NCBI GenBank assembly: GCA_964618995.1
Contig: CAZUBQ010000002.1
Location: 25,352-89,351, forward strand
Direction of reading: 5' to 3'
Length of the DNA: 64,000 nucleotides
Source: an uncultured Candidatus Poseidoniales archaeon
GTDB lineage: Archaea > Thermoplasmatota > Poseidoniia > Poseidoniales > Thalassarchaeaceae
The position numbers were made by a program, and so were the translations under genes. Below the pieces are notes generated by a model. It saw nothing but the letters and a program-made list of their open reading frames with translations. It made no database searches and was not told the origin of the DNA. How positions within the stretch are numbered: position 1 is the stretch's first letter; each line of letters begins with the position of its first letter. Below, one piece after another: positions 23,979 through 46,200 of the stretch.

Positions 23979-24806
23979 GTGCCCGAAGCGCTCGCGATGA
24001 CCCTACAACTGACCCATCTCGGAACAGGCAGCCGTGGCAACGCCACCTTGCTATGCTCTGAAGAGGCAAACATACTGCTGGACTGCGGATTCTCAGGCAA
24101 GGAGTTGGAACGTAGACTAGCCTTGCTCGAACTGAAGCCGGAAGACCTGGATGCGATCGCCGTGAGCCACCACCACAACGACCACTCCAAGGGGGCACTA
24201 ATCGCCAACCGTCGCTGGGGCATTCCTCTGCACATGAACTTCGATACCTGCGCCCGGCTTGGGCTTGACCCGGTCAACGACTGCACCCTGTTCGAAGCAT
24301 TGGGACGCGTCGAATTCGCCGACGACTTGTCGCTGCTGCCAGTACCTGTGGAACACGGAGATGCGGACAATGTCGGATTCATCGTCAGCCATCGTGGAGA
24401 GAGAGCTGCGGTGGTGACGGACCTCGGTTCATGGTCAACCGAATTGGTGCGTCACCTCGGCCAATGCACGCACATTTCGCTCGAGGCGAACTACGACCAC
24501 GGGCGCCTGTTGGGCGGCCCCTATCCTGACCGCTTGAAACAGCGTATCATGGGTCGCGGCGGACACCTGTCTAACGAGCAGGCGGCCGATCTGCTCTCTG
24601 AAGTCTGCGGCCCCGCCACGAGAAGTATCGTACTCTGTCATCTCTCAGAGCAGAACAACCAGCCACACCTCGCCGAGAGCGAGGTTCTGATGAACATAGA
24701 CAACCAGTTCGATGGGGATCTGTCCATCAGTCTGCAGTCAGGACCGGAATTCAGCCACTACCTGGGTCAGGTAGAGCCAGAACGACTCTCGAGTGCGCAT
24801 ATCTGA
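23979..24806 (+). CDS. MBL-fold metallo-hydrolase (metallo-beta-lactamase superfamily)
   Basis: AVSHHHNDHSKG (the HxHxDH zinc motif), plus downstream His and Asp ligands. ~270 aa. Confidence 0.75.
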   Translation: MPEALAMTLQLTHLGTGSRGNATLLCSEEANILLDCGFSGKELERRLALLELKPEDLDAIAVSHHHNDHSKGALIANRRWGIPLHMNFDTCARLGLDPVNDCTLFEALGRVEFADDLSLLPVPVEHGDADNVGFIVSHRGERAAVVTDLGSWSTELVRHLGQCTHISLEANYDHGRLLGGPYPDRLKQRIMGRGGHLSNEQAADLLSEVCGPATRSIVLCHLSEQNNQPHLAESEVLMNIDNQFDGDLSISLQSGPEFSHYLGQVEPERLSSAHI

Positions 24807-28148: not shown

Positions 28149-28633
28149 GAACAGATGATCTCGAGCAGGCGTCAATTCGCAGGGACGAGGCGGCGGCGGC
28201 GACTGAACTAGGATACGTGTTCACATTCCTTCTGGGACTGCTGTTCCTCTCGATGTTCAGCGTCTGGACCTGGGACCTCGAATCCTCGCGACAGAAGTCA
28301 TGGACGGCGGAGGCGATGGACCAGAACCTCGACGCAGTGGCTGCTGCAGTGGAACGGGCTGATTCGGCGAGTCACCTCGGGGATGACGTCACTTACGCGG
28401 AACCAGTGCCTCTGCTGCTCTCTCAGGCGACCCGGCTGGAACTCAGGATGCTCCTCGATGACGAGGGGCTGCTGCTGCAAGATGGGAGTCGAGAGTACAC
28501 TTCGCGCAGACCCATCAGCGCGGGGGCTGCGACCAATCACACTGGAGAGGTGTCCTTGAATGGAATCGATACCGTCTGGGTGGTGCTCCACGACGGAGAA
28601 GTGCGACTACAGGTTTCCCAACCGGGCATCTAG
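28145..28633 (+). CDS. small pilin-like N-terminal domain protein (start uncertain; the track's start at 27986 overlaps the previous gene by 160 nt)
   Basis: DEAAAATELGYVFTFLLGLLFLSMFSVW hydrophobic N-domain just after the previous stop. A TTG at ~28145 overlaps the TGA stop (TTGA coupling). Confidence 0.4.
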   Translation: MRTDDLEQASIRRDEAAAATELGYVFTFLLGLLFLSMFSVWTWDLESSRQKSWTAEAMDQNLDAVAAAVERADSASHLGDDVTYAEPVPLLLSQATRLELRMLLDDEGLLLQDGSREYTSRRPISAGAATNHTGEVSLNGIDTVWVVLHDGEVRLQVSQPGI

Positions 28634-28648: not shown

Positions 28649-31198
28649 TCACTCACCCATGAGCGCTCGGTGCACCTTCGCTTGCACATCGCGCATACGG
28701 TCCTGGGCGCCGAGTTCCTGGAAGACTGTGAGTGAACGCTGCAGGTATTCCATTCGATGTTCCCTATCCCGTGCGGCTTCTCCTAGACGGGCGAGCAACT
28801 CGCCGATGAGTACTCTGTAGTCGTTTGATTCTGCGAGAGCGAGAGCTTCTCGATACTGTTCAAGAGCCTCGTCCTGTCGACCTGCGTCGACGAGCACCTC
28901 CCCAAGCAGCAACTTGATCTCGACTGCGGAGTGCTGGTCAGCCTCCTCGCTCATCTGCTCGAGTGCCTCAGAGTAGTGGAGCAGTGCCAGTTCTGGATCA
29001 CCGCTGCGAGCGTAGAAGCGGCCGAGTACTGCCCTAGCGCGCGCATGGAGCGACTTGTCCCCTGTGGCAAGAGTCTCGTCGTGAGCCACCATCGCGTGCT
29101 CACGAGCGCGATCGAGTTCGTCCATCTCAAGCAACGATGCAGCCAACTTGATGCGCGCGGCGGCGAACGAAGGATCCTTCTCTGAACCCAACAGAACTTC
29201 GACGTTCTCGCATGTCTCCAGAGCACGCTTCAAATCCTTCTGACGCCTGTAGATGTAGCCCATGTTGTTGTACGTCCGCGCCGCTCCAAGTGCATCATCC
29301 AGTTCGATGAACTGCACCAGAGCGTCACGATGCATTTCGAGTGCTGTGTCTATGTCTCCACGCATCATGTTGATGTCCGCTTGGCTGGAGTAGATGCGCG
29401 CGGTCGCCAACTTGCCGTCATCGCTCTTGTCAAGCAACTCCAGCGCCTCGGAGTAGAGTGCGCCCGCTTCTTCCCATCTACCTTGGATTGAGAGGATGTC
29501 ACCGCGCAGTTCCAGTACCACAGCCCACGCTGAATCCTCAACATCGCTCTTTTCGACAACGTCGAGGATTCCCAGCAGTTCCATGTGACCTGATGCCACC
29601 AAGGCGCGACCAGTGGTTGCTATCTCGGCACCCAACTCCTCACTGTCTCCGGTGTAGCGCAGATGGTAGAGGAATTCGATATTCTGCGATGGTTCCCGTC
29701 GGTGGTTTCGGTACCATTCTACAGCCGCCGCGTGCAGGTCTCGACGTGTCTGATCGTCATGAGAACGTGATAGGAACTCGCGGACCAGATCGTGTACGTC
29801 GTAATTCTCAGTGTCCGCTTGCCGTGCCAGCCCCTTGTCAACCAGATCGTCAAGTAGGTCTGTCTCCAATTCCTGCATTGTCAATGCCTCCAACGGCATT
29901 GGTTCGCGGAACACGGCCAACGCCCCCAGAAGACGCTTCTCTCCACCGGAGAGCTTGCTGAAAATCTCCTGCTCGACATACGTCTCAAGAGTCTCGTGGA
30001 AAGTGGCGCCAATCGACCCACGGTTGATCAGTTCCAATACCAAGGGGTGACCGCGTGACAGACCGTAGATGTGCATGTAGGTGACCTCGTCCATGTCAGG
30101 AAGTGCGGTCAGCAATTCCCGTGAAGATTCTCGATCCAGCCCTTCCAAGTGAACGACCAGCGTCATGATGTTCCCCTCGGCGTCAGTCAGAGGCATCACT
30201 GGGCGGAACGAACGAGAGAACAGCACGATTCCGACATCATCCATCTCTTCCATCCTCTGCGAGAGGCCACGGATTACTGAGAACAGCACCTCGTCGCCCA
30301 ATTTGTGCAGGTCGTCGATGACAATCAGCGCCGAAGTGTTCGCGAGTCCTCCGACTATCAGGTTGACTGACATAGGGGCCGAGGGGACCGGCGTCGTGGA
30401 CAGATAGTCAGACAATCCGTCATCACCAATGGCTGACAGCCAATCCGAGGCCACCTCGAGGAACGAACGCGCGCCCTCCCAGTCCTGCACTCGGTGGTAG
30501 AGCAGGTTTCTCTTGTGGGTGAACCTCTCGACCAGTTTGGCGGCCAATGAGGTCTTGCCGATGCCCGCTATTCCGGGCACAAGAATAGTGGTGGAGCGAG
30601 CATCGAGGAGGTCAACCATGGTCTTCAACTCGGCATCACGCCCCACGAAATGACGCATCCTGGGAAGGTCGCCGAGCACGGTCACCAACTGCTTCTCTAC
30701 GTGCTTCGACAGATCCCTTTCAATCAAGTCGGGAGTCAAATTGCGCATATCCAGCACGCCGTTGTCATCTAGATAGCGTAGCACGTCGGTGGGCCTGATT
30801 GCGAACGGAGACTGCTCGACGGAGCCGGCGAGGGTAGTGGATTCAGTCGAGCCATCTTGGACGATTAGGCGTACAGGGTGTTCAGCCAGCCGCTCCCATG
30901 TCTCCTCAGCCAGTTTCATTCCGGATTCAGTGAGGAAGTAGGCCTTCCGTTTGCGGGTCACTCCAGATACGTGTGCCTGCCTCTCGATGAGCAGATTCTG
31001 GTCCTTCAGTCCAGCGATGGCGCGCGGGACGTTGCTGCGAGCGATGGCGACAGCGTTAGCGATGCCCATCTGTGACAGAGAGAACGGTACCTCGACCTTG
31101 TCGGAGTAATCGGCGTAGTCCCACAAGTGGAGCAGGATGCGCTCCTGCACCCCCGGCTTCACCTGCACCATTTCATTCACCTCGTCCGAGTTCATCAC
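28649..31198 (-). CDS. STAND-class signal-transduction NTPase: N-terminal winged-HTH DNA-binding domain, NB-ARC-like P-loop NTPase and C-terminal TPR array
   Basis: wHTH (…LSQMGIANAVAIARSNVPRAIAGLKDQNLL…). Walker A GIAGIGKT, Walker B LIVIDDLH, and a GHPLVLEL motif (the GxP/'GLPL' motif of NB-ARC). Multiple C-terminal TPR-like repeats (…AARTYNNMGYIYRRQKDLKRALE…). Confidence 0.75.
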   Translation of the reverse strand: MMNSDEVNEMVQVKPGVQERILLHLWDYADYSDKVEVPFSLSQMGIANAVAIARSNVPRAIAGLKDQNLLIERQAHVSGVTRKRKAYFLTESGMKLAEETWERLAEHPVRLIVQDGSTESTTLAGSVEQSPFAIRPTDVLRYLDDNGVLDMRNLTPDLIERDLSKHVEKQLVTVLGDLPRMRHFVGRDAELKTMVDLLDARSTTILVPGIAGIGKTSLAAKLVERFTHKRNLLYHRVQDWEGARSFLEVASDWLSAIGDDGLSDYLSTTPVPSAPMSVNLIVGGLANTSALIVIDDLHKLGDEVLFSVIRGLSQRMEEMDDVGIVLFSRSFRPVMPLTDAEGNIMTLVVHLEGLDRESSRELLTALPDMDEVTYMHIYGLSRGHPLVLELINRGSIGATFHETLETYVEQEIFSKLSGGEKRLLGALAVFREPMPLEALTMQELETDLLDDLVDKGLARQADTENYDVHDLVREFLSRSHDDQTRRDLHAAAVEWYRNHRREPSQNIEFLYHLRYTGDSEELGAEIATTGRALVASGHMELLGILDVVEKSDVEDSAWAVVLELRGDILSIQGRWEEAGALYSEALELLDKSDDGKLATARIYSSQADINMMRGDIDTALEMHRDALVQFIELDDALGAARTYNNMGYIYRRQKDLKRALETCENVEVLLGSEKDPSFAAARIKLAASLLEMDELDRAREHAMVAHDETLATGDKSLHARARAVLGRFYARSGDPELALLHYSEALEQMSEEADQHSAVEIKLLLGEVLVDAGRQDEALEQYREALALAESNDYRVLIGELLARLGEAARDREHRMEYLQRSLTVFQELGAQDRMRDVQAKVHRALMGE

Positions 31199-31229
31199 CG
31201 GTTAGCAATCAATGTGCGCACGGCACCGT

Positions 31230-34200
31230 TCACTGCTGGGGTGGGCCACCTGACTGGTCTGGAATCCATTGGTTACTTGCCGCATCCCACTGCCATCCAG
31301 GATAGGCCGGTTGCGCTGCTGGCTCTGCTGCTGGCTGTGCTGCAGCATGTGCCGCTGGTTGAGCAGCAGCCTGTTCCTGCGGCGCCTGCTTGCCCCACGC
31401 GTATACGTCCTCATCCTCTTGGGACTCCTCAGACATCAGTAGCGACTCGTCGTCCACCTCTTCGAACTCGACGAAGAAGAACACGAACACACCGCCGAGC
31501 AGAGCGACGATGACCACCAAGAGTAGCGCCCAGAGGATCCAACCGAATTTGCTCCCATCATCCGCGTCACCTACCTGGATGCTGTAGCTCGTTTCGGTCA
31601 TACGCTCATTGTCATAGTCGAACACCACGATGTTGCTGCCTCTCTCCAACTTGGATGCGGGCACGTCGATGGTCCAACTGCCATTTTCGGAGATTTGCGC
31701 ACTGCCTAGACGCATTGCGTTCAACCCAGAGCGCGCGACCACCTCAACGCCGGGTCTGCCGGTGCCAGCGAACGTGACTGTACCATCGACGTCGATGTTT
31801 CCGCTGCCAACTCGCTGGACACTGAAACTCACCGCGTTCACCACGAAATCGACTTCGAGCGAGTACGCCTTGCTGTTGTGTGGATCCTTGGCGAGGAACT
31901 TCATCCCCGAGCAGGACCATTCGGCCATGTCGGGTGAATAGAACGACATCGCAACCGGGTTGTAGGTCGCTTTGCCATTGACGTCTATCTGGATTTGCTC
32001 TGCACACTGGTCGTCATCGTACGTTTGCGGGTCATCCCACACCTCAATGCTCAGATCCTCGCCCTCAGGATCGTAGAACCAACCCGCGAGTTCGACACTG
32101 GCTCCATCACCACAGCGATCCGGAGCCTGACTGTTCTCTTCACAGAAGATGACGTGCGTGCGCTGCCAACTCTGCTCCTGAGTCACCGAGGAGCCGTCGA
32201 GCAAATCGACCGTCTCTCCCTCGGCGAGATATATTGGAGCGAGATTGTTGGCATCGGGTGGGTTATCGATGATAATCTCCCTCTGAACCCAATCACTGTA
32301 CAGTTGTCCGTCCTTGGAGCGCGCCTGCACGAGATAGTGGAAATCGTGCACCAGCCTGGAGGTGTCCCAAGTAGTCGACCATGCGCCGTTGGGAGCGATG
32401 GTGGTGATAACGGAATGAGGTCCAGGGGGGCGCTCATTCATGGCGTCCTGCGGATCAAGTATCCTGATCTCGACCTTGGAAACGTCACCATCCGTGTCGC
32501 GGGCGACGCCGGAGATGATCGTGTCCGGTCCGGCACGAACGACCTGCATGTCATAGGGTTCAATCAACGTGATGAGCGGGGGTGCATTCGTATTGTCGAT
32601 ATCGAGGGTGAGCTCAACCGGAGTACACTCACCAATCACCCCGCGGCAGAACGATGAGTCGGACGCCCAGATGCGGAACATCCAATCTGTACGCACTTTC
32701 GGCATCCCGGAGAAGTTCCAGTCCCACGACCAAATCGGCCCTCCTACCACTGGGACCGTTGTCGTGTTGAATACAGATGAACTGATTTCGAAGTGGATCT
32801 GATCGATGTCACTACCATAGACGCCGTTGTACGGGTCACTGGCTGTGCCGCTGAAGGTGACGATGCCCGAATCGAACAGCGAACCGTCCGTCGGCGTTAC
32901 CACGTGGATGACTGGGGCCACCGTGTTGAGTCTGATTGTTCGCGTCACGACTGGACTGTAGTCGACACCATCCCAGGCGCGGAACTCGAAGGTGTAGTCG
33001 TTCTCTGGTTCCAGTGACATGTCATACTCGAAGTGCCAGATGCGGAATGGCCTGTTATCACTGGTCACTTCACCGTTCGCGTTGCTGTCGTCCACCGCGT
33101 AACGGGTGTCATTCCACGAACTGGATGCGGGCGTCTTAATCTCGATGCGCTCGATAGCACCCTTCTGCTCCCAGCGCGCCTGCTCGTCGGAGTTGAATAT
33201 CCCTGTGCCGATGTTTCCATCCCAACCCGAGCCAGTGAAGTTCACCTGACGCTTGAAAGAATGTCCGTCGAGTTGGGTGACAGTGACTGTGGGAGCCATA
33301 TTGTCGAGGGAAATGACCTGGTCCAAGGTCCCTGTCAGGTTGAACCAGTGCTTCTCGTATCCCTTGCCGAACTTGTATGTGGTCACGTAGTACTTCGACA
33401 ACTCACGCGTCGCCGACCCCTGCTGGCAATCTGGGTCATCCGAGTCGTAAAGCAAATCTCCGTCGTTGTCGATTCCGTCGCTGCAAGAATTCTCACCCGG
33501 ATCCCCTGCGAAGTCGTTGGGGTTGTCACCATTGCCTCTGATGTCAAGATGGAAGTCCGAGGGGAGTGCCACCCACGGCGTGAAACCGAACGGATCGGTG
33601 TCCATATCGTACATGTCGTTGCCGTGCGCATCTTCCAGCAACACCGTCGCACCTCCGACGCGCACACCGTTGACGGTGGCACGGAAGCGCACCAGTTCTG
33701 CCCTCCTCAGTTGAACCGACCACGTGCCGGCAGCTTGGGCGATATGTGCTTTGGAGAGGTCGAAGTTCGTCAGGTTGGCGAAAGTCAACACCGTCGAGTT
33801 GTTCACCAGTTCGAGTGACAACGGGAAGTTGCGAGGCGGAATGATCTGAGTAGGGGCGAGGTCGAGTTTGTTGCCCCAACCGTTGTTCGGATCGGCGTCT
33901 GCACTAATCCAACGGAGTTCCATCGGATAAGTCGTGGACGAAGTCGGATTAGGAATCAACTCAGACTGAACCGTCACCGAACTCTCTGAGATGTTGTACA
34001 CCTGCGATACGTTGTTCCAAGTGTTACCCGAGAAAAAGGCGAGCGAACCGTATTGTGGACCGCTCGGCACATCGTGCTGAACGACTCGTGCGCCCACTCC
34101 TGCAGCAGTGAACGAGTTGTCCTGGACGTCGATGATAGCTCCAATCGCTCTGATGGCATCACCCTGAGCGTTGTTCACAGTGTTGCGATGGATGCTGACA

Positions 34201-35630
34201 CTGGAGCGGAACAGGTGGAACACAGGGCAGGTGAATTCACTGTCCCACACCTTCTCACTCTGACACGTGCCGCTCACGTTACTGAAGGTGTTGTCCGCGA
34301 ACCATCCCCGAGCAGGCTGTGGACCAGACACAGTCCAGCCCTGGTCCCCGAAGTGGTACTCGCCGAGAATGACCGGTTCGCGGTTGATGTCCTGGAATGT
34401 GTTGTTGTCAGCGATGATGTCAACATAGCCGACACCCCAGATTCCATTGTAGCCACCAATCGGGCCGATGATGTTGCGGCTGAACTTGACCTCTGCCAAT
34501 TCCGGGTAGTTTGACACGACCTGGATTCCAGACCCATCATCAGCACCCTCCATCACGTTGTCCTCGAAGGTCACCAGAGCGCCGTCATAGGCGGTGAGCG
34601 GTGAGTTGTCTGCGGTTGAAATGCTGTTATGGTTAGCAAACAGTTCGTAGTCGTAGCCAAGAATCGTTCGCCTTCCATTGACATCGATTCCTGTGCAATC
34701 AGTCTGGAGCGTGTTGCTTGATATCGTTCCCGCGGAATCAGTGTAGCGATAACCGTAGTCCGCGCTGGCAACCACACCGTGGTCGATGTTCAGGAACGAC
34801 TTCTGCGCCCAGACGACGTGGCGGCCGTTGTCCTGTGAACTACATCCAGAGGATGTGCCAGAGAACACGGGGCTGTCAAGAGTCACCGGGTTGTTTGGCG
34901 TGCCCGCGCCGTAAGCCTGGATGGCCTGTCCAAGCAGAGACTCGACGCGCTCCTCGCTGCCGACGGTGAACGTACCACCGACGAAATGTGGTGAGGCAAG
35001 ATCGAGGATGAGCACACTTGAGGTGTTGATATCCTCAAACAACAGCCCTGTCGATGTCGGGCTGGCACCATCGAAGACCAGCGCGCCGTAGCGCACCTCG
35101 CTGATGTCAGTGGCGAAGCGGGGGATTCCATACGCATTCTTGATCTCAAGGTGATTCAACTTGGTCTGCTGCACATCGATGGTATCCCTGATTAGGATGC
35201 CTTCGTAGCAAGAGGGGTCCGCGTTGTAGAGCGGCTGGCCGTTGGACGGGTTGTTCAGCCAGTAGCAGTTTCCGCGGGCCGACCAGTTGCTCGGATCGCT
35301 CCAAGTGAATGTGGCCTTGCTCGAGTTGCTCCCCATGCCATTTGCGCCACAGCCAGTGTCCGCCGCGCATAAGTTGCCCCTTACGTGTAGGAACGTACCG
35401 TTCGCCATGGTGACCGTAGTCCCGGGCTGGATGATCAGTTTCGCCCCGGGCGCCACCTCCACGTTACCGGTGACCGTGTGTGACCCCTGCCATATCTCGG
35501 TTCCAGATATGACTCCGCTCTGGGTTTCATTCGAAGCGACGGCGGTCGGCAGAGCCAACAACAGCGCGCTCAGCGAGGTGAGCACCATGAGGCTCACCAG
35601 CGTGAAACTCTTCATTCGATTGTCATTCAT
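31230..35630 (-). CDS. giant (about 1470 aa) surface protein with right-handed parallel beta-helix (PbH1) repeats, Ig-like/CARDB-like domains, one C-terminal TM and a Gln/Ala/Pro-rich cytoplasmic tail; probable start MNDNRMKSF, or MKSF at ~35615
   Basis: Signal peptide MKSFTLVSLMVLTSLSALLLALPTAVAS. Repeated N-x-x-x-G-x-A-I motifs typical of pectate-lyase-fold repeats. A DGIDNDGD calcium-type loop. TM ILWALLLVVIVALLGGVFVFFFV. Tail with AAAQPAAHAAAQPAAEPAAQPA and YPGWQWD...NQW. Confidence 0.8.
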   Translation of the reverse strand: MNDNRMKSFTLVSLMVLTSLSALLLALPTAVASNETQSGVISGTEIWQGSHTVTGNVEVAPGAKLIIQPGTTVTMANGTFLHVRGNLCAADTGCGANGMGSNSSKATFTWSDPSNWSARGNCYWLNNPSNGQPLYNADPSCYEGILIRDTIDVQQTKLNHLEIKNAYGIPRFATDISEVRYGALVFDGASPTSTGLLFEDINTSSVLILDLASPHFVGGTFTVGSEERVESLLGQAIQAYGAGTPNNPVTLDSPVFSGTSSGCSSQDNGRHVVWAQKSFLNIDHGVVASADYGYRYTDSAGTISSNTLQTDCTGIDVNGRRTILGYDYELFANHNSISTADNSPLTAYDGALVTFEDNVMEGADDGSGIQVVSNYPELAEVKFSRNIIGPIGGYNGIWGVGYVDIIADNNTFQDINREPVILGEYHFGDQGWTVSGPQPARGWFADNTFSNVSGTCQSEKVWDSEFTCPVFHLFRSSVSIHRNTVNNAQGDAIRAIGAIIDVQDNSFTAAGVGARVVQHDVPSGPQYGSLAFFSGNTWNNVSQVYNISESSVTVQSELIPNPTSSTTYPMELRWISADADPNNGWGNKLDLAPTQIIPPRNFPLSLELVNNSTVLTFANLTNFDLSKAHIAQAAGTWSVQLRRAELVRFRATVNGVRVGGATVLLEDAHGNDMYDMDTDPFGFTPWVALPSDFHLDIRGNGDNPNDFAGDPGENSCSDGIDNDGDLLYDSDDPDCQQGSATRELSKYYVTTYKFGKGYEKHWFNLTGTLDQVISLDNMAPTVTVTQLDGHSFKRQVNFTGSGWDGNIGTGIFNSDEQARWEQKGAIERIEIKTPASSSWNDTRYAVDDSNANGEVTSDNRPFRIWHFEYDMSLEPENDYTFEFRAWDGVDYSPVVTRTIRLNTVAPVIHVVTPTDGSLFDSGIVTFSGTASDPYNGVYGSDIDQIHFEISSSVFNTTTVPVVGGPIWSWDWNFSGMPKVRTDWMFRIWASDSSFCRGVIGECTPVELTLDIDNTNAPPLITLIEPYDMQVVRAGPDTIISGVARDTDGDVSKVEIRILDPQDAMNERPPGPHSVITTIAPNGAWSTTWDTSRLVHDFHYLVQARSKDGQLYSDWVQREIIIDNPPDANNLAPIYLAEGETVDLLDGSSVTQEQSWQRTHVIFCEENSQAPDRCGDGASVELAGWFYDPEGEDLSIEVWDDPQTYDDDQCAEQIQIDVNGKATYNPVAMSFYSPDMAEWSCSGMKFLAKDPHNSKAYSLEVDFVVNAVSFSVQRVGSGNIDVDGTVTFAGTGRPGVEVVARSGLNAMRLGSAQISENGSWTIDVPASKLERGSNIVVFDYDNERMTETSYSIQVGDADDGSKFGWILWALLLVVIVALLGGVFVFFFVEFEEVDDESLLMSEESQEDEDVYAWGKQAPQEQAAAQPAAHAAAQPAAEPAAQPAYPGWQWDAASNQWIPDQSGGPPQQ
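31290..31385 (-). repeat. coding low-complexity repeat (AAQPAA x4)
   Basis: CTGCTGGCTSTGCTG-type units on the plus strand. They encode the cytoplasmic tail of the beta-helix giant. Confidence 0.6.
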
Positions 35631-35699
35631 GTTCACATACTCCTGATGTGAGCGGCCGATGGAGGGACTGAATATAAGCAAGAAGGCTCGACGCAATAG

Positions 35700-35790
35700 T
35701 ATTTGTATCAATTATCACTGTTTGTATCAATATTTTCTCGCTAATTTTCCTTACACTGTATCAATTTCAATGAAATGTATCAATTATTAA
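35700..35790 (-). promoter_or_regulatory. AT-rich upstream regulatory island with four direct copies of TGTATCAAT (candidate transcription-factor binding sites) upstream of the beta-helix giant gene
   Basis: Copies at ~35704, 35723, 35757 and 35776, arranged as 19-bp-spaced pairs 53 bp apart. Local GC is ~28% versus ~62% for the window. A TATA-like CTTATAT lies ~45 bp upstream of the ATG. Confidence 0.5.
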
Positions 35791-35861
35791 TATCATACCT
35801 AGGATGAAATATCAGAATTGGTCTAATGACTGGTTGGATATTACCGGAATCAGGTGTGATG

Positions 35862-37163
35862 TCACGTGGAAGAGGCAAGTCTGACCTCGACCTCTTCAAG
35901 CCAGGAGGTAGCATTCAACACCCCGTACCCGTAGCGCAGGTGGTGATCATCCAGCATCAACGGACTGGGGTCACATGAGTCGGCCAGAGCCTGCTTCACC
36001 AGGTCAATCGGCGCGCGATCACCCTCAGCAGCAGGTTGCAGCGCACCATGGTCTCGATGCCGCTCGAGGATCAATGCCAGCGCCCCGGTCACGAACACGG
36101 TCGCATCGCTTGTACCATCGCTGCGTGACCAAGTCGCACCTAGCTCCGTGGAGACGAAGGTGGAGTGGATCATCACCCCTGGGGCAACGACCTCAGGCTT
36201 CTGGTCAGGGGTGGACCTAGAACTCCCATCCGCCAATGTTGTTGCTCCGGCGCTGCTCTCTGACCACAGTGTCCGGTTACGGTGCACTGCTCCGACAGCG
36301 ATCACGTCATCGATATTCGCCGGGACGCTGACGTCCGGGTAATCCTGACCCGCCCCACCATGGTTACCAGCTGCCGCGACCACGAACACTCCGTTGTCGA
36401 GCGCCACATCCACAGCTTGCTCCGTACGTGTCCCGAGTTCAGTCACGAAGTCGGGCTTCCCCCCCAGACTCAGGCTGATGATGTGTGCCTGTTTCTCCAG
36501 CCAACACCATTCGATCGCATCCGCCACTACATTCTCAGCCCCGGATGAACCGTCGGCACCGAGCGCGGCTGCCACGATCAATTCGATTCCGGGCGCCGCT
36601 CCCGTGAACGTACCCTGAGCAGCGAGAATGCCCGCCATCATCGTGCCGTGCGAATGGGTTGCATCATTGTCGTGTGGATCTCCTTCCGTGTCGTGGACGA
36701 AATCCCGGAAGGCAACCAGATTGACATCAGATAGGTCCGGGTGGCTCGTGTCGATTCCTGTATCCACCAAGCATACTCGTACTCCCGCTCCTGTGAGGCC
36801 GATGTCGTTGAGGTCGCGGATGCCTGTTTCCTCGTATGCCCACTCAGAGTTGGGGATCAGGTCCTCGATGTAACTGGTCAGTAGATTCTGCGTGACCAGC
36901 AGCACAGCCAGCAGGATGATGATTATCCACAACCCCCATGGAAGGATGAGTGGGGGGCGCACTGGTCTGGCTGCGTCCGCCTCCTTCCAGCCACCAGGGT
37001 CCCGGTCGGAGGGCAGTCCGTAATCCTCAGCGGGGTATCCGGGTGCCTCGGGGTCGATTGCCGACAGCATTCTCGGTTCTTCAGGCTCTGGCAGGAACTC
37101 GACATCTTCCAGACCGAGTACCATCTGCTCCTCTCCGTACACTCCGAGGAGAGTACGCTTCAT
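35862..37163 (-). CDS. subtilisin-like serine protease (peptidase S8, halolysin-like) with an N-terminal signal-anchor (type II membrane topology)
   Basis: Catalytic Asp in VCLVDTGIDTSHPDL, catalytic His in HSHGTMMAGILAA, and a Ser motif near DGTSDAT. N-terminal cytoplasmic ~70 aa followed by TM LILPWGLWIIIILLAVLLV. Confidence 0.8.
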   Translation of the reverse strand: MKRTLLGVYGEEQMVLGLEDVEFLPEPEEPRMLSAIDPEAPGYPAEDYGLPSDRDPGGWKEADAARPVRPPLILPWGLWIIIILLAVLLVTQNLLTSYIEDLIPNSEWAYEETGIRDLNDIGLTGAGVRVCLVDTGIDTSHPDLSDVNLVAFRDFVHDTEGDPHDNDATHSHGTMMAGILAAQGTFTGAAPGIELIVAAALGADGSSGAENVVADAIEWCWLEKQAHIISLSLGGKPDFVTELGTRTEQAVDVALDNGVFVVAAAGNHGGAGQDYPDVSVPANIDDVIAVGAVHRNRTLWSESSAGATTLADGSSRSTPDQKPEVVAPGVMIHSTFVSTELGATWSRSDGTSDATVFVTGALALILERHRDHGALQPAAEGDRAPIDLVKQALADSCDPSPLMLDDHHLRYGYGVLNATSWLEEVEVRLASST

Positions 37164-37220: not shown

Positions 37221-40200
37221 TCAGAAAGGCGCGGCTCCGGTCATACCGGACCTGACTCTCCTGTAGAGGAGGAATCCTATGAGGAACATGGCGATGATGA
37301 TCATCGGAACCCATGTGTTGACGGATTCAGGAGCGGGTGTGGCGACATGGATGGTCTCCATCTCATTGGTATCTGAAGATGCATCCAGATCATCCAGTTC
37401 CGAGACGATGATGGTGAAGTTGAACTTCTGGTTCCCGATACCAACCCCTTCCAAATCGAGGAACAGCATGTAGTCGACTGTCTTACCCGCTGGAATGGCC
37501 AGATTGTCAGATTCAGTGAAGAGTTCGGGGTATTCGGGCATGTCAAGCCGTATCTTCACTTCGCGTGCATCGACAAGACCGTCGTTTTTCACGCGCACGA
37601 CGAACTGGTTGCGTGAGCCTGTGATCGCATCTCCTCCGCTGAAGGTGTCGATGTCCTCAAATGACAACAGTGGCCGAGCCGCCTTGACCTCTATGGAGAT
37701 CGGCGGGTAACTGGTGTTGTCCTCACTGCTGATATTCAGATGCAGCTCAAAGGATTCATCGCCTGCGTCCGCGGGTGCGAACACGGTGAACGAGTAGGTG
37801 CGCGCCTCACCGCTGTTGTACGGGGACTCCTGCGGCCCGGTTGCGCTCCATCCCTCTGGCAGCCAAGTCGTGTCAATCTCAAACTGGATGGTGTCATGAC
37901 CGTTTCCTGCATTCTCAATCAAGAACTCCACTCGTTGCTCATCACCGGGATAGACCCCTGTTGTACCCTCAGGCTGCTCGAGCACGTTCACCTGGTAGGT
38001 CTGTGGAATGCGGACCGTCAACACATGCTCGCTGGAGGAGCCGTCAGTATGAGTCAGTCTGAGCGTGATTCTGTGACCATCATCCAATGAAGTGGAATTA
38101 CTGAGGTTCGCCGGTTGGACACGCATGGTGAGGTCGAGGGTGCCCGCGCTGTCCAAGCCAAGTTGAATCTTCTGCTCCTCCACCCATTGGATAGTACCAT
38201 TGGCATCGGTGCCATTGTGGAACTCGACCGACCAGTACTCGATGTCCTCGGCGGAGAAGACGGTCGTGACGTTATACTCGTCAAGTGCCTCATTGCCTGT
38301 GTAATCAATCTCGATTGTGAACTCGATCACCTCGAACACATTGCTCTCGTTCGATTCCACGACATCGACGTCGTTGTTCATCTCCTCGTGCTGAGTTGCC
38401 CCAGTGACCGAGGTGACATTGAACTGAACTCCGTGGTTAAGGTGGCGATTGAAGCGCAGGGTGTTGACCGGCGTCTCCTGTTCGGAGGCGATATCGATCG
38501 AAAGGCCGGCGCTGTAGGTCATGTTCAGCCCGTGTTCAAACGTCTGGAATTCACTCTCGAGGAACAATGTCCCCTCGGGTAGCAACAGGTCTACGTTGCC
38601 TTCGGAATCGACACCGACCACCCATTTGCGGTTGTCTCCCATATCAAAATCGATGGACGGTGTATCGAGCATCTCAGCACCCGGTACATTCGAGTCTCCG
38701 AGGTGATGGTTTTCGCCCTCGAAGTCAATCCATGAGGTGGCGATGTGCAGGATGCCGCCTGGCTCCAGCGTCAGGTTCACCTCCGCGCCTTCGTGCACGC
38801 TTGCATCCACGAGAATCACACCGACCACGCCGGCGGCTTCGTTTGTGGCAATCAACACCCATTCTCCGGGTTCGACATCCGCACTCCACGAGCCGTTCCA
38901 GTCACCCCCGTTATCGAGTAGTTTTTCGGGTGTGTGGGAATCTCTCTCGATTCCAGTGTGCGGTACGAGCTGAAGAACAACGCCTCCAGAGATATCGTCC
39001 CACACCTCCATCTGCACGTAATCTATCAGGCCCACCACAGTGACGTTTCCTGCCAGCAATTCCAAATCGGTCGAGTTCGAAGTCTCGGCGATGACGATTG
39101 TGGTGTTTACAGGGGCGAATCCGATACGGGTTGCTTCGATGGTGTAGTTGCCGAGAACGGGTACGAACAATTGCCATGTTCCGAGTTCGCTGCTGGTCAA
39201 GTTGACGTCCTCTGGCAGGCCGCCTCCGCTGACGCTGATGTTCGCACCTTCGACGCCTTCACCCTGATCGTATTCACCGTCGTCATCGAGATCCCAGAAC
39301 AGATTCCCGCCGAGGGTGACCCAATGCTCCAAGATTATCGAACTGTTGTCCGGTGTCTGTTCTCCGTCGCTGAGTTCAGCCAAGGTCTGTGATTCGAGTA
39401 GCCAACGCTCCTGAGAGAACGTAGCGTTCAGGGACAGCGACCACGTCCCTGGCCATATGTAGGCGTCGAGCACGCCATCCGAGTTGGTCGCGGGCAGCGT
39501 TATGTTACCCAGACCATCCTCGCTGTGGGCGATTAACTCGAACCCGGTCATATTCTCCCCGCTACCCTCCTCGAAGAAGGATATCAGCAGATGAGCAGAT
39601 TCCTTAGTACGCCAAGAGATTCCATCGAGGCTGGCGTTGCCGTCGATGACTAGCAGGCCACGGAACTCCTCATGTGTCACGCCGGTGTTGAATCGCTCAA
39701 CAGTGACTATCCACTCGCCTTCGGGAAGATAGTCGAGCAGGGTACCGTTCTCGTCTGTGAAGCGAATGAACTCGATTTCGCCGTCTACAGATTCAAAGTT
39801 CACCTGTCGCTCTGCCACCGCTCCGCTGGAGAAATTGGTCAGTTCAGCGTTCACCCGCCACATGGGCAAGAAGGGCATCTCAACTACCTCGCTCACGTTG
39901 TTCACGCCAAGTGCCAGCACGATGTTTTCTGCGGCCGCCAACTGGGTGTCGTAGGCGCTGCCGTTGGTGGCATTCTGCGGCTCTACGGCAATCGTGTAGA
40001 CACCAGGTTCCACGTTCACGGTGATGCGACCATCGGTGAACTCGGCGGAGGTGACGTTCAGGCCAATCCCCAGACCACCCGCTGAAATCGGTACGAAAGC
40101 CAGGTCGATGTCGATGAGCGTGCCGTTGCTGACGTTCGCATCACCCTCATGGTCGATGAAGGCGGTGATGTCGACGGTGATGTTGTCCGGTTGCGCCATC

Positions 40201-43200
40201 AGCACTAAGTTCAGAAGGTTCTCACTGTTGTTGAGCGAGACGTTGATGTCCATCGATTCGAGGTTGAACCAATCATCATCTATGCTCAGTGTCCAGAGAC
40301 CTTCCTGCAATTTGTTTCCGAAGCGGCCGTCCGAGTCCACCTCTAGGAACCAGTGTACATCACGGGCGTGGTCGTATGCGTGAATCTCCACCGGTCGGTA
40401 GAAGGGGAAGTTACTGGTGTACAACGTCAGGTTGCGATTGATGAACATAGTGCCAGAGAAAGGCAGACCATTCTCGAGGAAGAGCACGATTGGATCCATC
40501 CCCTCAAGCACCTCGAACTGGGTTCCGTTGGACAGTTGGCTGGCAATCGAACGAGCGGTCATGTTGACGACGGCATGTTCGGGAAGCAGCAACGAGAAGT
40601 TGCCCTCCATATCTGTCGTCACCGACGTCTCTATGCCACCCCATTGGAACTCAACCACTAGGTTGTGCGCCGGATCGAATGGGTCATCCTCCTTCTGGGT
40701 GTGCACGAGAATCGTGCCGTTCACCTCGACGCTGCGAACAAGCGTCCACTCCAAGCCGCTCATGTCCTCGATTACCTCGAACTCCTCCCAGAGCATCAGG
40801 CCATCTGCACCTGTGCTGTTGGCCACCCATCCACCCATGGGCAACTCGATGTGGTAGGAACTCGTGTTGTTGTCATAACGAGCTTGCAGGTACTCATCAT
40901 CGAGCAACAACTCGCTGTGGAACCACACTTCGGAGTCACTCACTGGCTCGACCGTTCCTCCGCCCAATTCGGTCCAGACCGTGAACTCGACATCATAGTG
41001 CACCGGAACCGGGTTGGCGCTACTGATGAGTGAGAACTCCTGCGCATCGATGATGGCTGAGATATGCGCGACTCCGTTGCACACACCGTATCCAGTACCG
41101 TTCCACGGAACGCACTCGTTGAATCCATCACCATCGTAGTCCATGCTCAACGAGTAGTTGCCGTCAGGGAGAGGACCGAAACCGAACGAGCCGTTCTCAT
41201 CTGCGGTAATGATGCATGGGGCGAAGAAAGTGACCTCGCATGGCTCGATGGCAGGGCTATCCGGCAGGCTGTTGTCGAGAATCTCCAGTGGAGCATCGCT
41301 GACCATCGAGCCATTCATCCACTTCAGTTCGCCACTGATGTGTGACCCTGGCATCAGCAGTTCGACATCAGCGATAGGTTCTGTTTCGACATCGAGGGAC
41401 GTCGACAGTCGAGTGCGCTTGCCATTGCCGAGTATGACCTCGACTCGATAGGTACCGGGCAGAGCATCGACGAGATGGAACGATCCCGGCTCCACCATTT
41501 CCCCAGTGAAGATACCGACTCCGCTGAACAATCCCGTGCCATTGAACACTCCGTACGTCTCAAGTTGATCGTCGCTGGTGTTGGTGATGAAAATTCCTGC
41601 ACCGACAAACGTCTCCCTGTACATCTCTGTAGTGAAGTCCAGAGTGCCATTGGCGGTGACCCTGCCACTGCCATCCAACTGATTGATGAACACGTACTTC
41701 GGCGGATTACTACCGAGAATCAAACATATCTCATCGTCCTCCGGAACAGTCTCGTTCACGCAGTTGGAGAGGTTGGATGGCGGGTTAACAAGCGTACCTT
41801 CGAATGTGCCCGCGCCCTTGAACTCGCCACTACCGGTGAAGGAGTGGTTGTGTAGTATCTGGCGAGTGAAATTGCCCGTGAAGTCAGAGACGAGCACAGT
41901 ACCCTCAGATTGCATCACGCCAATTCCGGTGAAGGTTACCTCACCTGTTCCGCGGAAGGTTCGCGGATGCTCTTCATCTGATTCAACCGTCCCATTGGTG
42001 GTCCAGATGTGCGGGAGTTCCCGCTGAGTCCAGATCTCTGTTAAGATGAGTTCGTGAGAAATGAGTGGCTCACCGTCGAATGAGGCGTGACCATCCCAGG
42101 CAACGGTGCCCGAGGCGCTAGATGCCGCGATGACAAGTGTCTGCTCGATAACCTGCTCACCGTTCGAGTCGGCTTGCTCTCCGGTGACATTGAACTCTAT
42201 CTCGCCAATCCACTTCCCTCCTGAGACATTCGCCAGCAGCGCGGTGACCGGATTGATGGTTCGTCCATCTTCCGGCTGGTCTCCAAGCACGTCTGTGAGC
42301 CAAGTTTGCCAGGTCTGGAAGTTGCTCTGTGCTTGAGTGATCTTATCGATTGACACCTGACGCGCCTCGGTCTCCTCTCCTGTGAACCCGGTGAACGCTG
42401 TGACGCGGATGTGGCCTGCAGGTACCCTGAACTCGAAGTGACCGTCATCGTCTGCATCGACGGTGCCGATTGGAATCCAGTATTCACGCGGATCGTCGTC
42501 GTTAGAACTCTCGCCACTGTAGGCATCGCGCTCGATGAGGAGGCGCGCATTGGGCACAGTGGAGATGTCTCCAAGTTGGACTTCACCCGACAAAGTCGCT
42601 CCAGAATAGTACTTCAGAATCTTGACCGCGGTGTTCGCATCATACCATGGCTTCGTTCCGTCGTCATTGTCCTCGTCATACCAGTTGGCGATCACGAAGT
42701 GGTTCATCATCGCCGCTGGAAGCGGGAAGGCGTACTGCAGTGAAGAATTCGACGTGCCGCGCATATCGAAGTGCTGCCCTGGCTGAGCAGGGTCTGTGTT
42801 GAGCACGTCATCGAGACCAAGCTGAGGAGAACCGTAGCCGATGTAGGTACGAGCGACCATCGTGTCGAAGAACTCCGCCTCATGATCCACCCTGATATCC
42901 ATGAGTTGTATAATCTCTAAATCGTTCTGCGACTGGCTGCGCACGACGTCATCCTTGTACTCCGCTTCGTACTGCTCGGACGACATTTCTACAGGATAAC
43001 CTGACGCGCCGCGCTGAGTGACGTACAACGTCTCGAAGTATGTGTCAGGATCGAGCCCTGAGAGTGTGGTCGGGGCGTAGAAGATACCCGTGGGGTTGCC
43101 TCCGCTGGAGGAGTAGGCGCCCGCAACGGGGTAGAGACGATTGTCTACTGCAAAGTAGCGGATCTCGTGGTTACGATCGATCGTGTCTCCGGGCTTGCCG

Positions 43201-46200
43201 CCAGAATCGTCGACGGTGTAGGTGATCTCATTGGACACCTCATGGTTGAGCGTGACCAACTCGTCGAGTGTGAGTGCGGTGGACAGGAAGGTACGCCCCA
43301 GCGCCAGCCGTGCATTCTGCCGGTGAAGCGAGGTCGTGGCGTCGGCGAAGTCATCGACGATGTCCTTGGTGTACCAGTAGTCACCGATGATGTAGTGCGT
43401 CACTTCCTCCGTTACCACGTCGTTGCGGTGCTTTGTTGAGTTGAGTGATCCCATTGCATCGGACAGAACATTGTGTTCTGTGCCATCCCACTCCCGACTG
43501 TCGTAGACCCGGTAGGATTTCGTGAGAACAGGCATGCCGATGTCGTTGAGGTGATATCCTTCTCCGAGGGAGATGCTGCCCGCTGTGTGAGTGATGGTGA
43601 ACGAGTGATCGACGACAACCGATTCGCCATCAACCCCCAAGGTCGTCAGCAGCACGAATTCGTCGTACTGGGTGTCTGACAGGGCGCGGTGCAGGGCGTT
43701 GTCGAATCCTGGTGTGAATCCTCCGTCACCGCTGTAGCGCAAATCGCCCTCGGCGAGCGTCAGTATCCAGAGTGCCAGCAAATCCTCCTCTGACTGAGCG
43801 AGCAGCATGTTCCCTGAATTCGGAATACCGCTCTGGAAGTTGTCCGCCACAGTCGGGTGTTTCCCCTGAGCGAGCGCCTGGAATCCATAATCCCACCAAG
43901 AGACGAACGCCGGGCGTTGCGCGAACGGCATTTCCTGATCCTGTTCTTCGAGCCACTGGTAGCCATCGTTCCAATAGCGTCCATTGAAGCCTGAACCGAA
44001 AGACCCCATGTACCAACAACTGGTCGACTTGCTGGAGCCGCGACAACCGCTTGACGGGTTGTACTGGGTGTCGTCGAACACAGAGAATCCGAAAATCGGG
44101 TCAGCGGTGCGCAGCAGCCGCGGCGTGATGTTGTAGATTGATGAATCGACATCCTTGGCTGCGGAGTTCCCCTGCGGGATGCCGGCATCCAGTCCGTAGG
44201 TGGCGTGCTGGCTGACGAGCAGCATGAACACAAGCAGGATGGCCCCCACAGCAGGGTGCTTCTTCAGCGCCTTGGTACCAGAAGTGAATCGTGCCTTCGG
44301 AGTGCCAACCCCGAACCTGCGCCATGATTTGGCAATCTGGTCGCCGCCACACATGCTCCACAAGAGAGTGATCGACCACGCCCCCATGACCGCCACCGGA
44401 GGAGTCGCATTGAACACGAACCGTCCGGCGCGCCATGCCATGAAACCGGCAACGAGCATCCACACCGCCAGCACCAGTTTCACCCGGTCCTGCTGGCGCA
44501 CACCCTGCCACAACGCCGCGAGTCCTGAACCGACGGCCAGCAGCGCAACGAGCGGCCCGAATGAACCGAACAACATCCCGCGGCTGGGAGCCTGTGCCTC
44601 AGCGATTGTCCCGAATATCTTGTTCTTGCTGAAGTAGTAGCCACCCGTGAACAGCACCTCCCATGCAGAGGTGTCCTGCAACACATCGACGATGAACCAG
44701 CCAGCCGCGCCGATGATGCCGAGTACGAGCACGATGGATTGCGGATTGATCTTGGATTCGTAGCTCGCGAGGAACATCCAGATGAACAGCAGACCGGCGG
44801 CGAGCGCACCGAAGTACCATTCGATGGAGAAGTTCACACCTCCTGCGATGATCAGCATACCTATGATTGCCGGTCCGGCGATGACCAACCACGGCAGATC
44901 ACGACTGGCGGATGCGATGTATCCCGTGACGAACGTGAATGCGAGGATGTAGAACATCGGCTGGAATCCGCTGGCGTCCCACACGAGTTTCAACTCCATG
45001 TGAGCGTAGAACGGGAGTGGCAGAAGGAAGGCACTGATCATCATAGCCAATGCAGCGACCGTGAGTGGCATGCTGTCACGACGCCGGAACATGTTCAGCA
45101 GTACCTGAGTGAAGAAGGCTGCATACAAGATGGCGAGACCATAGACGAATCCCTTCCACCCAAGTGCAACAGTGGCAAACGCGAAGCCTGCAAGGATAGC
45201 ATTGGAAACCGCAGTCGGGCGTTGCTCAATGGTCGCCTTCACACCCCTGAGGAAGTACGAGGGGCGCCACGAGGAGTTGGCTACGAGTTTGTCGCTGCCC
45301 GCCGCCTCGACCGCCTTCAACCAGAAGTAGAACCCGAGCGTCAGGAACAGGATGACGAACGCGTCGTGGTCCGCCATCGCGAACGTGCTCTTGGAGACGT
45401 GCCCCGGCATCAGGGCAATCAGCCAAGCGGCCACTGCCCCGGTGCCCTTGCTGAAGAATCGCCGACCGATTGCCGCCATCGGCAACACTGTGAGAGAGCC
45501 GTAGATGACAGGCAGAGCGGACACCGACCACCAGACCGATTCTTCTGCAGGTACTCCGAGAATCGGGGCGAGCAGCAATCCTCCGACAGCCATGCTCCAT
45601 GCGAACAGCGGTGGCCGCGGATTAATCGCTCCGAGCGGATAGGAGCGATCCATGTCGATCAGGAAGTGGCTGTGCTGGGCGAGAACGTACTCCACGGCGC
45701 GCATCATGTACCACGGATCAGAACCTCCGGTCAGATCCCACTCATGGGTCCCGCTGGCGTTCATCGCCGGTATGACGCTCCATACTGAGCGAATGATCAG
45801 CGCAACCAACATCGCGGTGAACACTGTGATTCCGTACCAGTGTGCGGACCACCAGAGACGAGCCGGGCCGGGTAAGCGCCGCGGTGATGTGTCTCCGAGC
45901 TTGCCCATGACGCCGAGAATGATGGCGACCGAATTCACCCAGAAGAAGATGAAGAACCAGACGAACAGGCCATTGCTTCCCCCGAAGTATGAATGCCAAT
46001 CAGATGATCCTGTCAGGATGAGGCCCTTCTCCTGCAATCCCGAGAGAGAGAACAGCAGCCAATTTGCGAGTAAGAGCGTTGCCCGGGTCTTCCAGCGCTC
46101 GGATACGAAGAACATCGCCAGCAGCGAGAGGATACCGGTGAACAGAGCCCACCAGATGCTCATGTGATCGCCAGCCAGCCGCGCACCTTCATCGGATGAG

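Follow-up and report, generated by a model that had tools for sequence, protein, structure and literature searches.

Upstream of the gene for a giant surface glycoprotein, an uncultured Candidatus Poseidoniales archaeon carries an array of short direct repeats that may serve as the binding sites of a transcription activator. The array occupies a 150-bp AT-rich island in a 64-kb stretch of contig CAZUBQ010000002.1 (hereafter the window), between the gene for an S8 subtilase and that for a beta-helix protein. We propose, with a probability of about 0.55, that the island is an upstream activator-binding array of the beta-helix promoter and is bound by an oligomerizing STAND protein encoded next to it. 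The parts of this reading differ in strength. That a sequence-specific protein binds the array is very likely. It is reasonably probable that the binder activates by recruiting TBP and TFB from about -60, and the odds are slightly in favor of the binder being the STAND ATPase, with one winged helix-turn-helix (wHTH) domain per hexamer and head-to-tail oligomers. The same promoter very probably also drives the gene of this protein, wHTH-STAND-TPR, as part of one transcript.

The first of these points had been raised in an earlier note, which took the repeats for a protein-binding cis-regulatory array upstream of the beta-helix promoter, and it is now supported by a footprint across about 60 Poseidoniales species. 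Full-length homologs of the beta-helix protein share 39-84% identity with it, and those with names come from Candidatus Thalassarchaeaceae, Poseidoniaceae or Poseidoniales. As the host belongs to Marine Group II (MGII), we read the promoter logic as archaeal, with a TATA box and a TFB-recognition element (BRE) used by TBP and TFB.

Six direct repeats in an AT-rich island

The G+C content of the island is 0.28 at 35700-35849 (27-28% across descriptions of it), and the lowest 150-nt segment, at 35694-35843, has 26.7%, about 8 standard deviations (SD) below the mean of the 64-kb window (58.5%, SD 3.9% for 150-nt segments). Since the next-lowest 150-nt segment elsewhere in the 64 kb has 46.7%, the island is the sole strongly AT-rich tract there. 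The earlier note had described it as such, with the right length and composition, and had set the G+C content of the window too high, at about 62%. The island lies in the 231-nt intergenic spacer between the S8 gene and the beta-helix gene (35631-35861), and all surrounding genes are on the minus strand.

Within the island, TGTATCAAT occurs exactly four times on the plus strand, at 35704, 35723, 35757 and 35776 (spacing 19/34/19), and no fifth copy exists in the 64 kb, even with one mismatch. Four copies of any 9-mer appeared in only 1 of 20,000 dinucleotide-preserving shuffles of the island. Because the flanking genes are on the minus strand, we read the motif in the gene direction, as ATTGATACA. 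Its exact copies are found 74-154 nt upstream of the beta-helix ATG and also upstream of a TTATAT box, in agreement with the geometry first proposed for them (19-bp pairs, all copies beyond a CTTATAT box).

Scanning the island with the hexamer TGATAY gave six sites rather than four; the earlier count of four direct repeats holds for the exact 9-mers and overlooked two TGATAT copies. All six sites point in the same direction and form three pairs with 19 bp within each pair (overall spacing 19, 13, 19, 34, 19), at -184, -165, -152, -133, -99 and -80 from the ATG. The distal pair, detected by the TGATA[CT] scan, comprises site 1 (TGATAT, 35809-35814, minus strand, as for all sites) and site 2 (TGATAT, 35790-35795), 19 bp from site 1. 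The middle and proximal pairs are the exact ATTGATACA copies: site 3 (35776-35784, core TGATAC 35782-35777) with site 4 (35757-35765, core 35763-35758), 19 bp from it, and site 5 (35723-35731, core 35729-35724) with site 6 (35704-35712, core 35710-35705). An A-rich tract, GAGAAAAT, precedes site 5 and recurs in many orthologs.

Measured start to start, site 6, the proximal site, precedes by 33 nt the TATA-like box TTATAT at 35672-35677 on the minus strand (CTTATAT, 35678-35672), which by its sequence and conserved position is the putative core promoter of the beta-helix gene. A Shine-Dalgarno-like AGGAG (35640-35644, minus strand) follows 9 nt before the ATG, where orthologs keep GGAG or GAGG. 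With the TATA box centered near 35674/5, beta-helix transcription is predicted to start near 35647-35649, which would place the hexamer centers at about -59, -78, -112, -131, -144 and -163.

Several smaller features accompany the sites. Sites 3 and 4 are linked by a perfect palindrome of 13 nt, ATTTCATTGAAAT (35764-35776, minus strand). A T>A single-nucleotide polymorphism (SNP) interrupts it in L001, L002 and L005, three near-identical metagenome contigs, and orthologs lack it; it is probably fortuitous. Among six near-identical contigs, all six variable columns fall outside the hexamers, which is not evidence of constraint, as only about one would be expected inside by chance (P ~0.36). In many orthologs, the proximal TGATAY is followed after 4-5 nt by a CAATTG palindrome (TGATACtatttCAATTGc, e.g., L008 9930-9945), of which the CTATTG at 35694-35699 (minus strand) in the window is a degenerate form, and Poseidonia-type genomes have a different conserved block, AATGAGGCGCAGTA, in the space before the TATA-like box. 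Either block could be the site of a second factor or a BRE-proximal element.

Conservation and helical phasing across the order

To the window we compared nine orthologous loci retrieved via the beta-helix protein (84% down to 41% identity) and 80 further loci retrieved via the N-terminal domain of the STAND protein, the latter being the best 80 of 504 tblastn-confirmed relatives in species-representative genomes. Site statistics were drawn from the usable promoters of 58-61 species-level genomes, and each set covers both MGII families. Sense TGATAY/TTGATAY arrays were present upstream of the beta-helix gene in 9 of 9 loci of the first set, and sense TGATAY arrays at the same place in about 58 of 58 usable loci of the second. 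At least two TGATA[CT] sites were found in 60 of 61 promoters (range 2-6), and exactly four in 32 of them. In 58 promoters there are 205 sense sites, compared with 19.2 ± 4.2 in dinucleotide shuffles, whereas antisense TGATAY is not enriched (5 vs 7.6 expected).

The extended consensus is wwwwTGATAYtwtt, of which the hexamer alone is invariant, and the spacers cannot be aligned between genera; the G and Y of TGATAY do not vary, in contrast to the AT-rich flanks, which drift. The region is no compositional island in MGIIa genomes of high AT content (38-45% G+C), yet the hexamers and their spacing persist, which indicates that it is the hexamers that matter and not the AT-richness. The array is built from pairs whose members are 19-20 bp apart: consecutive spacings in the 61 promoters are 19 bp (66 cases), 20 bp (25), 13 bp (11) and 32-35 bp (33), and essentially all orthologous promoters have a partner site 19 or 20 bp upstream of the proximal one. 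Poseidonia-type genomes retain the proximal pair only, and elsewhere two or three pairs are present. The closest other species (84% protein identity; L007 8450-8476 and L018) has three proximal sites only 10 bp apart (TGATACtattTGATATgattTGATAC), one of them inserted between the two usual members, which is evidence that sites turn over within a genus.

The position of the array relative to the core promoter is also kept. From the start of the proximal site, it is 32-34 nt to the TATA-like box in 48 of 58 promoters, and 45 nt in those of one clade (8 of 58). The box itself, with the variants TTATAT, TTATAA, TTATAG, TTTTATC and GTTAAG, is found 38-49 nt before the ATG across orthologs, and TTATA[ATG], TTTTATC or GTTAAG occupies the equivalent position in 56 of 58. 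The comparison with related genomes that the earlier note had called for thus gives a core, an orientation, a spacing and a distance to the TATA box that are kept in about 60 species, and not an unconserved tract.

Adjacent pairs are separated by 21, 32, 42, 52-55, 62 or 73 bp, which corresponds to 2 to 7 turns of B-DNA. A periodogram of the inter-pair distances peaks at 10.5 bp with a phase near 0 and a vector strength R of 0.89 (0.83 on distinct values), statistics in which related species are not independent samples. With the pairs at whole helical turns, all of them would face the same side of the DNA, and the use of different integer numbers of turns by different clades argues for a face-of-helix constraint rather than an RNA motif or neutral drift. 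The phasing had originally been sought within a pair, as two helical turns. This is only approximately so, since 19-20 bp separate the members and 19 bp is 1.8 turns; the clean phasing lies between pairs. The element has the layout of an archaeal upstream activator-site array, with repeats that stand upstream of a TATA-like box without overlapping it and that are conserved while the spacers diverge.

Confinement to one promoter

A search of 1.27 Mb of MGII DNA (both strands) for the signature TGATAY-N13/14-TGATAY gave 112 matches, every one of them upstream of the beta-helix gene. For 106 matches this followed from automatic coordinates, and the other six were assigned by position. Five of these six come from loci without a start-codon assignment (L035, with two, L048, L070 and L084). 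Their positions, 4.47-4.76 kb upstream of the STAND match, fall within or slightly past the interval where the arrays are found (-4.4 to -4.7 kb); the sixth is an antisense match inside the L053 promoter. In the window, 32 TGATAY hexamers are present, and the only ones outside open reading frames (ORFs) are the six of the island and one at 63253, beyond the gene list. A scan of the window detected no TGATAY upstream of the other giant surface-protein genes (12398-17875, 18012-23759 and 37221-47036). Within the 64 kb and the 1.27 Mb, the array belongs to one promoter, and a surface-gene regulon is not supported. The suggestion in the earlier note of a switch for several surface genes thus finds no support in this sequence, as no non-coding motif was found at the other giant surface-protein genes of the window or elsewhere in the 1.27 Mb of related loci.

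A metagenome scan for the three-site pattern TTGATAY-N12/13-TTGATAY-N25-28-TTGATAY returned at least 120 matches on unrelated, mostly AT-rich contigs, and none of the contigs among the matches listed encodes a relative of the beta-helix, S8 or STAND protein. One contig unrelated to the MGII locus (L117 1007-1518, Ga0123355_10306270) has five overlapping three-site TTGATAY matches, apparently in a tandem array. In the window, the 32-nt gap between the beta-helix stop and the STAND start (31199-31229, minus strand) has a single ATTGATTG, one base off ATTGATAC.

The candidate regulator

The gene for wHTH-STAND-TPR (28649-31195, minus strand; about 840-848 residues, with an alternative start at 31171) starts 32 nt after the beta-helix stop. 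The protein consists of a wHTH domain (residues ~16-103), a small alpha/beta domain, a P-loop STAND NTPase (GIAGIGKT; LIVIDD) and TPR repeats. Pfam matches to the N-terminus are below threshold (HTH_Crp_2, E = 1.9e-4; PadR, 0.011), and the sole match of its profile in the PDB is PadR, at E = 1.6. The fold is clearer from an AlphaFold2 model built with 24 homologs, which is a canonical winged helix (predicted local distance difference test score 84.5) with helices at 16-25, 42-49 and 56-65, wing strands at 69-76 and 82-88, and a helix at 90-103, followed by the alpha/beta domain. A Foldseek search of the PDB with this model returned MarR-family proteins first (MepR-DNA complexes, ZitR and AdcR; E ~2e-3, probability 1.0), and MepR, ZitR, AdcR and PadR superpose with a root-mean-square deviation of about 3 Å over about 90 columns.

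The remainder of the protein has the parts of a STAND ATPase with a TPR arm. AAA_16, AAA_22 and nSTAND3 match at residues 184-327, where Walker A and B motifs are present, and the C-terminal arm matches TPR_12 (1.2e-27) and TPR_MalT (1.4e-12, 48 bits vs a cut-off of 45). NCBIfam matches are weak and far below threshold (MalT, 40.9 bits vs 537; AfsR, 36.3 bits vs 1430). A role as a defense STAND of the Avs type was considered and rejected: PADLOC gave a generic TPR match only, and the relatives are single-copy and syntenic.

Several observations tie this protein to the array. It is the sole DNA-binding protein of the conserved gene neighborhood, and its gene is always the next one downstream of the beta-helix gene, with a gap of 12-97 nt in the 51 loci measured. 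A run of five or more T is found in this gap at none of 62 loci; with so short a gap and no such run, co-transcription and hence autoregulation are plausible. The best 80 of the 504 relatives are single-copy, syntenic and 70-98% identical over the N-terminal 190 residues. Between an MGIIb and an MGIIa genome, the whole STAND protein is 58% identical and the beta-helix target 41%, and little or no variation is seen in the segment VEVPFxLSQMGIANAVAIARSNVPRAIAGLKD...RKRKAYFLT, in which helix 2, the recognition helix and the wing are contained. The predicted DNA-reading surface of the STAND protein and the hexamer core have both been frozen over the same evolutionary span.

The protein also belongs to a wider family, for which a profile of the N-terminal module yielded 969 representative clusters at E <= 1e-10. 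Many of the members have 750-1,180 residues and match the wHTH domain, the linker and the start of the P-loop domain; the few names available point to Thermoplasmata, with annotations such as "MarR family/TPR" or "NACHT". In two outgroup loci, the STAND gene adjoins genes for giant secreted proteins as well: a 1,401-residue NosD/beta-helix protein in L216 (4739-12661), and a 1,268-residue PKD and a 1,704-residue FG-GAP protein in L217 (1-12661). The two cases hint at a family of surface-protein-linked regulators with lineage-specific sites. The arrangement in both is divergent, through a small ORF. One record among the retrieved loci, the single-cell assembly L073 (JAOMAZ010000002.1), is titled "Deltaproteobacteria bacterium AH-558-G13" and has a typical MGII wHTH-STAND locus with a 72% identical N-terminal domain; it is probably mislabeled or contaminated.

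A model for the array and the points against it

We suggest the following mechanism. Each hexamer would be recognized by a single winged helix of the neighboring STAND ATPase. A signal received by the TPR arm, together with nucleotide binding, would cause the protein to oligomerize head to tail, and the oligomer would fill the phased direct repeats cooperatively. From about -60, counted from the start site, it would then aid the loading of TBP and TFB on a weak TATA/BRE. With the regulator encoded in the same transcript, the circuit would be self-reinforcing and switch-like through positive feedback. Head-to-tail oligomerization would explain why the repeats are direct rather than inverted, and the location of the sites upstream of the TATA box, not on it, favors activation.

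A number of points weigh against this model. The link between the STAND protein and the array is guilt by association, the lineage is uncultivated, and protein binding, activation and the position of the start site are all deduced from sequence. Proteins with a MarR-type wHTH are normally dimers on palindromes, and do not usually occupy direct repeats 19-20 bp apart. Two distant STAND relatives from other Thermoplasmata (L216 and L217) have no TGATAY array next to them, and their recognition helices differ. The assignment of the core promoter is uncertain in that some MGIIa clades have a poor TATA (GTTAAG) at the box position, and the A-rich/TATAT tract just upstream of the proximal pair is a possible alternative TATA. 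Finally, the exclusivity of the motif applies to the 64 kb and the 1.27 Mb of MGII loci and not to whole genomes, and a global regulator may therefore be involved.

Alternative explanations

The last points lead to the strongest alternative, in which the cis function is the same but the binder is an unlinked, possibly global factor of the Lrp/AsnC, TrmB, MarR or another wHTH type, while the STAND protein performs sensing or scaffolding for surface-protein biogenesis. Conservation and geometry show that something binds, not what, and the scans covered loci; the usual preference of MarR-like domains for palindromes and the lack of an obvious array at the outgroup STAND relatives also fit a separate binder. 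However, the paired motif is confined to this promoter in the DNA examined, and the STAND wHTH is the sole DNA-binding domain of the neighborhood and, like the hexamer core, does not vary across the order. Furthermore, Lrp and TrmB sites are dyad-symmetric, whereas the sites here are direct (205 sense vs 5 antisense). We consider an unlinked factor the less probable choice, to be kept in mind nonetheless.

An operator of the Lrp/AsnC or TrmB type (a dyad-symmetric 13-15-bp box, or the palindrome TACT-N-AGTA) was rejected separately, because the sites are asymmetric and in one orientation and the sole local palindrome is SNP-broken. The two regulators put forward in the earlier note have fared differently in this respect: the STAND neighbor is retained, with its N-terminal winged helix, and the TrmB/Lrp-type factor is dropped for want of dyad symmetry.

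The second alternative reverses the sign of the regulation. A repressor, or a chromatin protein nucleated on the AT-rich island, would hold the surface gene silent until the block is lifted. Sequence does not tell activation from repression, nucleoid-type silencers classically target the AT-rich islands of GC-rich genomes, and several phased sites could allow DNA wrapping. Archaeal repressors typically act over the TATA/BRE or the start site. Here, about 27 nt separate the end of the sites from the TATA-like box, so that they overlap neither TATA/BRE nor the predicted start, and the hexamers and their spacing outlast the compositional island in AT-rich MGIIa genomes. The target is, in addition, a universally conserved single-copy core surface protein, which is likelier to be highly expressed. 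A silencing platform is accordingly an unlikely account of the array.

Less probable still is an element that works at the RNA level, with the S8 and beta-helix genes co-transcribed, or a start upstream of the island, and UGAUAY as a site for processing, stability or translation factors. Strict sense orientation would be equally expected of an RNA motif, and the island in the window has no T-run longer than three, which would make read-through from the S8 gene possible. In contrast, the inter-pair distances follow the 10.5-bp helical repeat of DNA, which has no meaning for RNA, and the sites stand at a constant distance from a TATA-like box, which itself precedes the ATG by 41-48 nt. Runs of five or more T, which should terminate archaeal transcription, occur in 40 of 58 orthologous islands, and a search of 35300-36200 on either strand gave no Rfam match at E <= 1. 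As a terminator of the S8 gene, the island was rejected: although such T-runs occur in the 40 orthologues, the maximum in the window is T3, and termination is not the conserved function.

An island without specific binding (a bent or meltable UP-like element, an origin with iterons, a mobile-element scar or chance) could appeal to its being the sole AT-rich tract of the window and to direct repeats being typical of iterons, but is already largely refuted by the invariant G and Y of TGATAY amid drifting flanks, by a fixed syntenic position across an archaeal order that rules out mobility, and by 9-mer uniqueness and shuffle statistics that exclude chance, so that hardly any weight is left to it. 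A replication origin in particular was rejected, as there is no orc1/cdc6 neighbor, the repeats are direct and the cumulative GC skew has no inflection at 35.7 kb.

The presumed target gene and its neighborhood

The presumed target of the candidate STAND activator (31230-35630, minus strand; ATG at 35630 after AGGAG) encodes a secreted, membrane-anchored protein of 1466 residues with a signal peptide, dozens of N-x-S/T sequons, beta-helix and immunoglobulin-like (Big_7) parts, a C-terminal transmembrane helix and an acidic tail. By these predicted features it is a type-I anchored surface glycoprotein, and it may be an S-layer-type coat protein. Orthologous surface glycoproteins have 1,430-1,490 residues throughout Poseidoniales.

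Upstream, the stop codon of the S8 subtilase gene (433 residues; 35862-37163, minus strand) bounds the spacer; the S8 protein is identically encoded on marine metagenome contigs, including a scaffold of a metagenome-assembled genome from the Red Sea. The next gene (37221-47036, minus strand) encodes a protein of 3,271 residues in which a domain search identified an STT3/AglB oligosaccharyltransferase domain. This domain, at residues ~439-777, comes with a weak AglB_core match and with CarboxypepD_reg-like domains. Orthologs of 3,194-3,257 residues are encoded just upstream of the S8 gene in MGII genomes, and in L015 (MGIIa) the gene is split in two. The order STT3 giant, S8, beta-helix, STAND is kept throughout the retrieved loci.

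A three-gene unit on the opposite strand, a metallo-beta-lactamase-fold gene and the gene for a protein of about 1,900 residues also hold their position across loci. In the window, the three syntenic MGII genes (24859-28633, plus strand; ~345, ~749 and ~162 residues) converge on the 3' end of the STAND gene. The ~162-residue product has a weak DUF7266 match, and none of the three has a known function. The metallo-beta-lactamase-fold gene (23979-24806, plus strand), whose orthologs carry the Pfam match Anti-Pycsar Apyc1 (PF23023), sits between this unit and the ~1,900-residue giant, an arrangement that is conserved.

Significance

In the surface ocean, Poseidoniales (Marine Group II) rank with the most abundant archaea, and, to our knowledge, no member has been cultivated. 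Our literature searches, metatranscriptome papers included, found no report on this element, this regulator, Poseidoniales promoter motifs or MGII gene regulation. The locus offers a cis element that can be tested outside the organism, with a defined hexamer, spacing rules, a core-promoter distance and one strong candidate for the regulator. Should the STAND protein prove to be the binder, signal-integrating activators built from a nucleotide-binding oligomerization domain (NOD) plus TPR repeats, so far characterized in bacteria, would also work with archaeal TBP and TFB. The signal that controls the cell-surface coat would then become approachable, a coat that is important in particle attachment, grazing and virus adsorption. 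If it is not the binder, the array is still an order-wide phylogenetic footprint that is useful for MGII promoter annotation. The principle is unsurprising, yet it provides an unusually clean, testable handle on regulation in an abundant uncultivated archaeal order.

Comparison with known systems

The closest parallels in domain logic are bacterial. MalT and GutR share the logic of a NOD plus a sensor. Large SARPs such as AfsR (wHTH, BTA, NOD, TPR) bind direct repeats spaced 11 or 22 bp (PMC10936776). Like AfsR, MalT and GutR, the MGII protein combines a DNA-binding domain, a P-loop NOD/STAND ATPase and a TPR sensor arm; as in SARP targets, the MGII promoter has several short repeats in the same direction at helically meaningful spacing; and as with bacterial STAND activators, the regulator gene adjoins its presumed target. 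However, the differences are considerable. In an archaeal host, the partner would be TBP, TFB or RNA polymerase and not region 4 of a sigma factor. The MGII wHTH is N-terminal and MarR/PadR-like, in contrast to the OmpR-type wHTH with BTA of the SARPs and the C-terminal LuxR helix-turn-helix of MalT. While SARP sites overlap the -35 element, the MGII sites are found ~60-165 nt upstream of the presumed start, in 19-20-bp pairs. The MGII STAND protein would therefore work like regulators of the MalT/AfsR type by its domain logic, without being a member of their family. It also differs from the family whose fold it shares at residues ~16-103: classical MarR/PadR proteins are dimers of ~140 residues that bind palindromes and mostly repress, whereas the MGII domain is fused to a STAND-TPR body of ~740 residues and has direct repeats nearby.

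It is tempting to go one step further and to regard wHTH-STAND-TPR as the first archaeal counterpart of the MalT/AfsR class, i.e., a signal-integrating, ATP-dependent oligomeric activator that acts on phased TGATAY sites with positive feedback, that controls the main surface (possibly S-layer) glycoprotein of the most abundant planktonic Euryarchaeota in the ocean and that may represent a Thermoplasmatota-wide class. This is a tentative proposal that could well prove wrong. If it is true, the wider wHTH-STAND family could be dedicated surface-protein regulators across Thermoplasmatota.

Among archaea, the best comparison is EarA, where archaellum operons are activated through one to four repeats of 6-8 nt that stand at a constant distance upstream of BRE/TATA (PMC10665913, PMC5512572). 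The EarA promoters of Methanococcus and Thermococcales resemble the MGII promoter in serving a cell-surface gene and in having short repeats whose copy number varies between species. The EarA motif, TACATA or A(C/G)(C/G)TACA(T/C), is located ~9 nt upstream of BRE with adjacent copies, whereas TGATAY comes in 19-20-bp pairs 32-34 nt from the box; and EarA is a small stand-alone regulator of archaellins, whereas the MGII candidate is a STAND ATPase with a beta-helix glycoprotein as its target. An EarA recognition site was thus rejected, as motif, distance and target gene all differ. Other archaeal activators, namely Ptr2 of M. jannaschii, GvpE at the upstream activating sequence of haloarchaeal gas-vesicle promoters, and TFB-RF1, use sites that abut BRE/TATA, recruit TBP or TFB and depend on helical phase. 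Their sites are single or double, often dyad-symmetric, and abut BRE, in contrast to the up to six direct hexamers of MGII. Set beside these systems, the MGII element would be a well-defined addition to the known archaeal activator-site arrays and, if binding is demonstrated, a variant of STAND-type regulation.

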